DNA of 4,513 nucleotides, from positions 1-4,513 of the IMG/VR virus record IMGVR_UViG_2537561712_000015, one strand, 5' to 3'. Shown here in pieces: positions 3,129 through 3,222 of the stretch. The DNA is from a virus. Lineage: Duplodnaviria > Heunggongvirae > Uroviricota > Caudoviricetes. The position numbers were made by a program, and so were the translations under genes. Numbering within the stretch: the stretch's first letter is position 1; every line of letters begins with the position of its first letter. Below the pieces are notes generated by a model, which was not told the DNA's origin, did not search any database, and saw only the letters and a program-made list of their open reading frames with translations.

Positions 3129-3139
3129 TTTACCTCCCA

Positions 3140-3159
3140 AATCTAAGTATTTTTAGATT
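3140..3159. promoter_or_regulatory. Operator O1: perfect dyad AATCTAA-gtattt-TTAGATT
   Basis: 7-bp perfectly complementary arms with a 6-bp spacer. Overlaps the -10 of the cro-direction promoter. Confidence 0.6.
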
Positions 3160-3183
3160 ACAAGATAATTTTTTTTAGGTCAA
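3155..3183 (-). promoter_or_regulatory. PR-like sigma70 promoter for the cro-ydaT-O-dnaC operon
   Basis: On the minus strand: -35 TTGACC (3178-3183), 17-bp spacer, -10 TAATCT (3155-3160). Predicted start near 3147, giving a ~19-nt leader containing the cro Shine-Dalgarno. Confidence 0.5.
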
Positions 3184-3186
3184 TGC

Positions 3187-3206
3187 AATCTAAAATAATT
3201 TATATT
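3187..3206. promoter_or_regulatory. Operator O2: AATCTAA-aataat-TTATATT (one arm mismatch)
   Basis: Same 7-6-7 geometry as O1, centred 47 bp away. Overlaps a TATATT hexamer (3201-3206) that could be the -10 of the repressor promoter. Confidence 0.5.
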
Positions 3207-3222
3207 CAATTTGCAGGAGAAA

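Follow-up and report, generated by a model that had tools for sequence, protein, structure and literature searches.

Introduction

In phages lambda, 434 and P22, repressor has its lowest intrinsic affinity for OR2, the middle site of the right operator (OR), and fills it cooperatively; in phage 933W, the left operator (OL) consists of two sites, with no OL3 (PMC3317979). The P22 repressor contacts positions 2–7 and 12–17 of an 18-bp site, and the A/T-rich centre of the site is read indirectly (PMC4267663). Here, we describe the region between a cro-like gene and a CI/c2-like repressor gene in a 4,513-bp stretch of viral DNA (IMG/VR record IMGVR_UViG_2537561712_000015, positions 1–4,513; hereafter "the window"). 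We conclude that this region very probably serves a lambdoid immunity region of P22-type architecture as its right operator/promoter complex, with three sites in the OR and a left operator 0.8 kb away.

Repression, activation and an OL-type promoter have been shown experimentally for prophage CP-933P, which has a lambdoid arrangement that includes an early-right promoter (PR933P), a repressor-maintenance promoter (PRM933P), an early-left promoter (PL933P) and a repressor-establishment promoter (PRE933P) (PMC8630535, PMC9986795). The YdaT protein of CP-933P activates PRE933P, a PRE-type promoter of the repressor operon, and binds TTGATT-N6-AATCAA; its main site lies where ydaS, the equivalent of cro, ends (PMC8630535, PMC9986795). 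According to an earlier description, the dic locus of the Qin prophage is P22-like and carries operators both at dicCp and at dicBp (PMC10448788). Over positions 2850–4100, the window matches prophage Sp14 of E. coli O157:H7 Sakai with 100% identity. Our literature search, whose coverage was incomplete, found no description of the operators or switch of Sp14 or CP-933U, or of the half-site strings reported below.

Results

A perfect 7-6-7 dyad, AATCTAA-GTATTT-TTAGATT, occupies positions 3140–3159 (AATCTAAGTATTTTTAGATT), and a copy with a single mismatch in the right arm (TTAtATT), AATCTAA-AATAAT-TTATATT, occupies positions 3187–3206 (AATCTAAAATAATTTATATT), 47 bp away from start to start. We refer to these dyads as OR1 and OR3. 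A sequence-only reading had proposed both, as operators O1 and O2 of a divergent cro/repressor control region, and a motif scan returned the same two sites at the same positions. Scanning the window for AATCTAA-N6-TTAGATT with up to two mismatches gave three matches, as compared to 0.01 expected, and none of 200 dinucleotide shuffles gave three. The third match, at 3945–3964 (AAACTAAATACTTTTAGATT; one mismatch), had been overlooked, and is described below as OL1. The genes that flank OR1 and OR3 agree with a control region of the kind proposed. On one side, the cro-like gene (2901–3128, minus strand; 75 amino acids) belongs to the P22_Cro family of Pfam (E = 1.2e-9) and corresponds to Cro (ECs_2765) in Sakai Sp14; on the other, the repressor gene (3226–3870, plus strand; 214 amino acids from the ATG at 3226) carries HTH_3 and Peptidase_S24 domains and corresponds to CI (ECs_2766). 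The cro-like gene has GGAGG (the reverse complement of 3133–3137) 4 nt ahead of its ATG, and the repressor gene has the Shine-Dalgarno (SD) sequence AGGAG at 3215–3219, with an alternative in-frame ATG at 3223 that would give a protein of 215 amino acids.

OR1 and OR3 overlap both of the divergent promoters predicted in this region. A PR-like promoter is predicted on the minus strand (3155–3183), with a −35 element TTGACC (3183–3178), a 17-nt spacer, a −10 element TAATCT (3160–3155) and a predicted start at ~3148. As read from the sequence, this −10 element falls within the right arm of OR1, and OR1 covers both the −10 element and the predicted start. The −35 element is constant in every listed variant of the E. 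coli group and likewise in Salmonella and Arsenophonus; Xenorhabdus has TTGATC. On the plus strand, the right arm of OR3 includes a candidate −10 element for the repressor gene, TATATT (3201–3206), which would place the start of a PRM-like promoter at ~3213; Arsenophonus has TAGATT at the equivalent position, and Morganella has TAGTTT. No good −35 element was found at 16–18 bp from this hexamer, the best being AGGTCA, with three of six matches. Both operator–promoter overlaps, and the lack of a strong −35 element at the repressor promoter, had been pointed out in the sequence-only reading and are borne out for these predicted promoters; the poor −35 element fits dependence upon an activator.

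We constructed a half-site position weight matrix (PWM) from the strong sites of three lineages. Position 8 of the PWM is a purine, which gives the half-site A-A-W-C-T-A-A-R and the consensus operator AAWCTAAR-N4-YTTAGWTT. Among ~19,000 positions in 19 kb of Sp14, the four highest scores were those of OR1 (21.2 bits), OL1 (19.4 bits), OR3 (17.6 bits) and a site between OR1 and OR3 (6.5 bits) that we refer to as OR2. A match of 4.2 bits at the 5′ end of the repressor gene (3244–3263; AGGCTTAAGAGACTTAGAAA), the fifth best in the window, is probably due to chance.

Homologues of the repressor were found in ~50 E. coli-type viral contigs (91–100% identity), in an SRA contig (L060) that is the closest relative outside the E. 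coli group (69%), and in Salmonella (66%), Arsenophonus and Phlomobacter (50–51%), Yersinia (50%), Xenorhabdus (45%) and Morganella (42%); over the eight lineages compared, identity ranges from 42 to 96%. All of these homologues are accompanied by a divergent P22_Cro-type gene, and their recognition-helix region, GV(T/S)GV(T/A/S)(I/V)GYWEKD(L/I)N, is near-constant. In all lineages, strong dyads with the same half-site adjoin cro and adjoin the repressor gene: OR1 is found in the same place in all relatives, and OR3 is near-invariant in ~30 E. coli-group variants. The spacers of the dyads vary freely and are all A/T-rich but otherwise unconserved, and the arm variants are confined to those found at other sites (AAACTAA, AATATAA and TTATATT).

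This pattern of variation bears on two other interpretations of the dyads, namely hairpins in RNA or DNA that act in attenuation or termination, and binding sites of a different factor, e.g. YdaT or a protein of the host. As RNA, OR1 can form an 8-bp hairpin (−4.2 kcal/mol, z = −4.6), and YdaT also reads an inverted repeat, of 6-N6-6 form (PMC9986795). However, OR3 and OR2 have RNA folding energies of 0 kcal/mol and OL1 reaches only −1.9 kcal/mol; arm variants break pairing without compensation, as where AAACTAA is combined with TTAGATT; and the predicted cro start lies inside OR1, such that a hairpin would not be fully transcribed. Moreover, the dyads coincide with −10 or −35 elements at three predicted promoters, no Rfam family matches them, and the known YdaT site (TTGATT-N6-AATCAA) differs from them in sequence. 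We consider it highly improbable that the dyads are anything of this kind.

OR2 (3162–3181; AAGATAA-TTTTTT-TTAGGTC) is a weak site that overlaps the −35 element of the PR-like promoter. It has four mismatches to the dyad consensus (gap-shuffle p = 0.006), and its centre is 22 bp from that of OR1 and 25 bp from that of OR3. The sequence-only reading had recognised only two operators, a count that missed this degenerate third site as well as the OL sites. For eight of the eight lineages compared, the best PWM match in the gap between OR1 and OR3 is in one register, separated from OR3 by 5 bp and from OR1 by 2 or 4 bp, giving each lineage three OR sites with an OR2–OR3 spacing of 25 bp. The score of OR2 varies between lineages, from 13.4 bits in L060 (where OR1 and OR3 score 12.5 and 12.6 bits, respectively), through 8.9 bits in Morganella, 6.6 and 4.5 bits in Xenorhabdus, 3.7 bits in Arsenophonus and 3.6 bits in Salmonella, to 0.3 bits in Yersinia (p = 0.2); most E. 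coli relatives score 0.5–2.8 bits (shuffle p 0.02–0.06). Per-gap shuffle p values range from 0.0002 to 0.2, and, combined by Fisher's method, they give 2e-8 over seven lineages and 7e-6 over the four that lay outside PWM building, under a null that models neither conservation of the PR −35 element nor the shared ancestry of the lineages.

Several observations weigh against OR2, and against the three-site model of which it is part. The eight lineages are homologous, and hence are not independent trials. OR2 matches the dyad consensus poorly, departing from it at 4 of its 14 arm positions, and in the E. coli lineage it is weak, at 6.5 bits as compared to 17.6–21.2 bits at the strong sites. Its right arm shares 3–4 bases with the PR −35 element, and the match is thus overstated by conservation of the promoter; the outer left arm is variable among E. 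coli relatives (AAGA, AGGA, AGGG, ATGA or AAAA). The OR1–OR2 distance of 22 bp is 2 bp shorter than that of the Arsenophonus, Xenorhabdus, Yersinia and Morganella relatives (24 bp). The T run in the OR2/PR spacer (3169–3176) is 8 nt long in the window and 7 or 9 nt long in a few related contigs (L010, L011, L016, L029 and L045), a change that would alter both the spacing of the OR2 arms and the length of the PR spacer; the differences may be homopolymer sequencing errors or real polymorphism. As regards the promoters, a consensus promoter scanner reported neither the PR-like nor the PRM-like promoter in the intergenic region, and detected only the PL-like promoter described below; the cro promoter falls under the scanner's threshold because TAATCT matches TATAAT at only three of six positions. 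Lastly, the literature search yielded no binding, footprint or transcript data for the operator region.

Some of these observations would be expected if OR1 and OR3 were the only working operators, with the gap between them consisting of the PR −35 element and a T tract. Repressor dimers would then bind independently, there would be no activation from OR2, and the repressor promoter would rely on YdaT and a PRE-type promoter, or on basal activity. The low OR2 scores in the window, in most E. coli relatives and in Yersinia fit such an arrangement, as do the polymorphic T run and the variable left arm. The centres of OR1 and OR3 are 47 bp apart, ~4.5 helical turns, which places them on opposite faces of the helix, and binding of the 933W repressor has been reported to be non-cooperative (PMC3317979). 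Nonetheless, we regard a two-operator arrangement as unlikely, given that the best match in the gap keeps one register and a fixed distance to OR3 in every lineage, that OR2 equals OR1 and OR3 in strength in L060 and scores reasonably in Morganella and Xenorhabdus, and that it ranks fourth among all Sp14 positions. Furthermore, most lineages retain the TAA-N6-TTAG core of OR2, which does not extend into the −35 hexamer, and the geometry is near-identical to that of P22, where OR2 works. We favour the three-site OR.

Beyond the repressor gene, an intrinsic terminator (3890–3910, plus strand; a 9-pair stem with six G-C pairs, followed by a T run) is succeeded by the left operator. The scanner identified a PL-like promoter, TTGACT-17-TAGATT (3936–3964, plus strand), with a predicted start at ~3971; this promoter is conserved in relatives and has the layout of the annotated PL of ES18. 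OL1 (3945–3964; AAACTAA-ATACTT-TTAGATT), which is likewise conserved in relatives, covers the spacer and −10 element of the promoter. A weak second site, OL2 (3912–3931; TTTTTAA-ATTAAT-CTAGATT; 3.8 bits, shuffle p = 0.04), is located upstream of the −35 element, with its centre 33 bp upstream of that of OL1; in phage vB_EcoS-689R5, the right arm of OL2 reads TTAGATT, without a mismatch. Two OL sites were found wherever an OL region was found. In relatives, OL1 lies over the spacer and −10 element of a TTGnnn-17-TAnnnT promoter, and OL2 is 33–35 bp upstream, with scores of 19.2 bits in Morganella, 14.7 bits in Xenorhabdus, 14.6 bits in Yersinia and 13.6 bits in Arsenophonus. No OL region was seen downstream of the repressor gene in the Salmonella contig L059 or the Xenorhabdus contig L007. 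The PL-like promoter is predicted to drive an early-left operon of ydfA and dicB type: the DUF1391/ydfA gene is at 4145–4297 (plus strand), and in Sp14, dicB lies further along, beyond that gene. Hence, the window has three features of a lambdoid switch, namely a repressor gene and a P22_Cro gene that diverge across 97 bp, related dyads over both divergent predicted promoters, and an OL cluster on an early-left promoter past the repressor gene.

The leader that follows the PL-like promoter (3965–4144) has its own pattern of conservation. The whole leader is 86–94% identical in eight phages that lack this repressor, and a segment at 4036–4078 (GTTAAGTAGCCAGCCCGAGGCGTATGAACATGACGGC) is nearly unchanged in Arsenophonus and Phlomobacter, where its flanks have diverged. 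This segment includes GAGG followed by ATGAACATG and might be the start of a tiny leader open reading frame (ORF); the encoded peptide is not conserved. We make no claim for an RNA element in the leader, since the consensus fold is weak (−8.5 kcal/mol, with few covarying pairs). An Rfam scan of the whole window with E values up to 1 returned only an unrelated, sub-threshold match to speF at 466–571, and none at the dyads or the leader.

The second gene of the PR-like operon (2479–2904, minus strand) is of the ydaT type (Pfam YdaT_toxin) and would be a functional analogue of cII. Its product is ~95% identical to CP-933P YdaT (PDB 8bt1, E = 1e-88). A possible YdaT site at 2894–2911 (plus strand; TTGATTTTCATGAATCCC) has two mismatches to TTGATT-N6-AATCAA, and includes both the stop codon of cro and the start of ydaT. 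With up to three mismatches, the YdaT pattern occurs four times in the window as compared to 2.35 expected, which is not above chance; YdaT was rejected as the binder of the dyads, the site at 2894–2911 being the only near match to its known sequence. We speculate, from its position, that 2894–2911 may be a PRE-type control site. The mismatches at 2894–2911 are all in the cro-side arm, and the mismatched arm may mark where the immunity and ydaT modules were joined by recombination.

We compared the operators with the annotated P22-type immunity region of ES18, in which OR1 is ATTAAAGAACACTTAAAT, OR2 is ACTAAAGGAATCTTTAGT and OR3 is ATTTAAGATGACTTAACT; registers were compared using the central 18 bp of each dyad. 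Both systems have divergent c2/cro genes and dyad operators with A/T-rich, uncontacted centres, and TAA and TTA are six bases apart in both operator types. In both, Cro belongs to the P22_Cro family, and the N-terminal domain of the window repressor matches c2 structures. The OR centre-to-centre spacings are 23 and 25 bp in ES18, 22 and 25 bp in the window, and 24 and 25 bp in four relatives. Thus, although the sequence-only reading had noted that the operator spacing differs from that of lambda, such that the switch logic might differ, the spacing is close to that of a P22-type OR. The −35 element of ES18 PR (TTGACT) overlaps the last 3 bp of OR2, and the PR-like promoter of the window has the same register with respect to its OR2. 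Similarly, OL1 ends one base short of the end of the PL −10 element in both, and OL2 is 35 bp upstream of OL1 in ES18, as compared to 33 bp in the window and 33–35 bp in relatives.

The differences from P22 are chiefly in specificity and in the accessory functions. The repressors are only ~31% identical, with a recognition helix of TGVTIGYW in the window and SNVAISQW in P22. The half-site core is ATCTAAR as compared to ATTTAAG, which amounts to one main position; hence, the window does not have the P22 immunity specificity (immC; half-site ATTTAAG/AnTnAAG), to which the ES18 sites ATTAAAG, ACTAAAG and ATTTAAG belong. OR2 and OL2 are degenerate in the window, and the interval from the terminator to OL2 is too short to hold an OL3. 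The place of c1/cII is taken by a YdaT-type protein, and in the window, PL is followed by neither an N/24-type gene nor a nut site. Lastly, the repressor mRNA of the window has an SD, whereas that of P22 starts at the ATG.

In lambda, OR2 is centred ~42 bp upstream of the PRM start, the position from which CI activates PRM, and 82 bp separate the starts of PR and PRM. The predicted PR and PRM starts of the window are ~65 bp apart, and OR2 is centred 41.5 bp upstream of the predicted repressor-promoter start (~3213). The window resembles lambda in having a poor −35 element at the repressor promoter, an OL on the early-left operon, and a repressor with an S24-type C-terminal domain homologous to that of CI; its proposed three-site OR, with OR2 as the intrinsically weak member, would also follow the lambda scheme. 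Lambda differs in that its operators are 17 bp long and of another sequence, in that it has three OL sites, and in that CI has a Ser149/Lys192 dyad and an Ala-Gly site, whereas the window repressor has a Thr and no Ala-Gly. The weak OR2 and the two-site OL fit what has been stated for lambda, 434, P22 and 933W (PMC3317979).

The switch of CP-933P (PaaR2, YdaS and YdaT) also has a divergent intergenic region of 97 bp, in addition to the near-identical YdaT. However, PaaR2 lacks an S24 domain, the Cro-type protein is YdaS, the operators are four 18-bp inverted repeats with the consensus GTTTAGTAA (PMC8630535), the repressor transcript is leaderless, and a toxin–antitoxin pair is co-transcribed with the repressor. 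The window therefore does not belong to the PaaR2/YdaS type, from which it differs in repressor family and operator, with only YdaT in common. The dicA-dicC/dicBp locus of Qin in E. coli K-12 has, like the window, a promoter after the repressor gene that drives a ydfA...dicB operon, but DicA is a 135-amino-acid protein without an S24 domain that is inactivated by the antirepressor Rem, and both the repressor and the operator sequences differ. As judged by these comparisons and by the literature search, the immunity specificity of the window appears to be new; its architecture is well known, and the mode of regulation is not a new one.

Among named phages, the closest repressors found were those of mEp390 (36% identity), 434 (32%) and P22/ES18 (c2; 31%). 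By comparison with PDB structures, the N-terminal helix-turn-helix (HTH) domain matches P22 c2 (E = 3e-7) and the C-terminal S24 domain matches lambda CI. A Thr (in DDTM; codons at ~3598–3609) aligns with Ser149 of lambda CI and with the serine of P22 GDSM, the catalytic Lys is present (KKL), and the linker has no Ala-Gly, with WGEAISF (codons at ~3484–3504) as compared to WVSAGQW in P22. Thus, the protein does not have the Ser-Lys dyad and Ala-Gly/Cys-Gly site of LexA/CI-type self-cleaving S24 repressors. The Thr is invariant in homologues from Salmonella, Yersinia, Arsenophonus, Sodalis and Symbiopectobacterium; more distant homologues of Morganella type retain VQAG and GDSM. These residues suggest that the Thr-bearing repressor clade may not self-cleave. 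Sp14 has been reported not to be directly inducible by mitomycin C, and to be mobilised only via regional replication driven by Sp15 (PMC2669165), a report with which a repressor that does not self-cleave would fit.

Of 5426 complete E. coli genomes, 474 carry the immunity module at a coverage of ≥80%, O157:H7 Sakai and EDL933 among them, and the perfect matches listed include O157:H7 strains. Phage vB_EcoS-689R5 is 92% identical over the module. For the full 4.5-kb window, no high-identity carrier of the whole was present among the best-ranked matches in complete E. coli genomes, and the best full-length match among those listed is ~88% identical. The remainder of the window (1–2850) includes genes for an IstB/DnaC-like ATPase, i.e. 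a loader of DnaC/IstB type (747–1487, minus strand), and an HTH replication-initiator-like protein (1494–2456, minus strand), and these replication genes differ from those annotated in Sakai Sp14. Given the lack of a listed whole-window match of high identity, and given replication genes other than those of Sakai Sp14, the window is, on this evidence, a modular mosaic of an Sp14-identical immunity module and other replication genes. One further copy of the repressor gene (96% identical), with its operators, was found on a 1.8-kb contig in a Collinsella sp. metagenome-assembled genome (MAG) bin (L003; JAIHTM010000357.1); this contig has most likely been mis-binned and is a piece of an E. coli prophage.

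Discussion

From the sequences, positions, statistics, conservation and protein families described above, we infer binding, occupancy order, cooperativity, activation and transcription starts as follows. Dimers of the repressor encoded next to the operators would bind dyads of 18–20 bp with the half-site A-A-W-C-T-A-A-R and an A/T-rich, uncontacted centre and, by analogy, the P22_Cro-family protein would bind the same dyads. In the lysogen, repressor at OR1 and, cooperatively, at OR2 would shut off transcription of cro, ydaT and the replication genes; OR1 and OR2 are centred at about −1.5 and −23.5, respectively, relative to the predicted cro start. Repressor at OR2, ~41.5 bp upstream of the predicted start, would stimulate the repressor promoter, which is poor in its −35 element. 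The invariant 25-bp spacing of OR2 and OR3 in the eight lineages fixes the distance of OR2 from that start. At high levels of repressor, OR3 would be filled and, because it overlaps the repressor −10 element, negative autoregulation would result. Cro would act in the reverse order, OR3 being the preferred Cro target in the classical scheme. OL1 and OL2 would repress the PL-like promoter of the ydfA/dicB operon, and establishment synthesis of repressor would probably come from a YdaT-activated promoter of PRE type, as in CP-933P.

A combined reading of the weak sites and the repressor is considerably more doubtful, and we offer it tentatively. OR2 and OL2 may have decayed in the E. coli lineage, leaving single strong sites at OR1, OR3 and OL1, in a switch whose repressor lacks RecA-stimulated self-cleavage, in which case induction would occur via an antirepressor or a co-resident prophage. 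If this is true, a switch with P22 architecture is uncoupled from direct sensing of the SOS response in ~9% of complete E. coli genomes.

The operator map of five sites, a consensus and three predicted promoters is testable. Comparison with P22 may show how a small change in the half-site goes with changes in the recognition helix. The immunity type described here would control an operon of dicB/ydfA type as well as prophage replication genes, and knowledge of its operators may allow the prediction of cross-immunity among the lambdoid prophages of enterohaemorrhagic E. coli (EHEC), and the design of experiments with reporters and with derepression.

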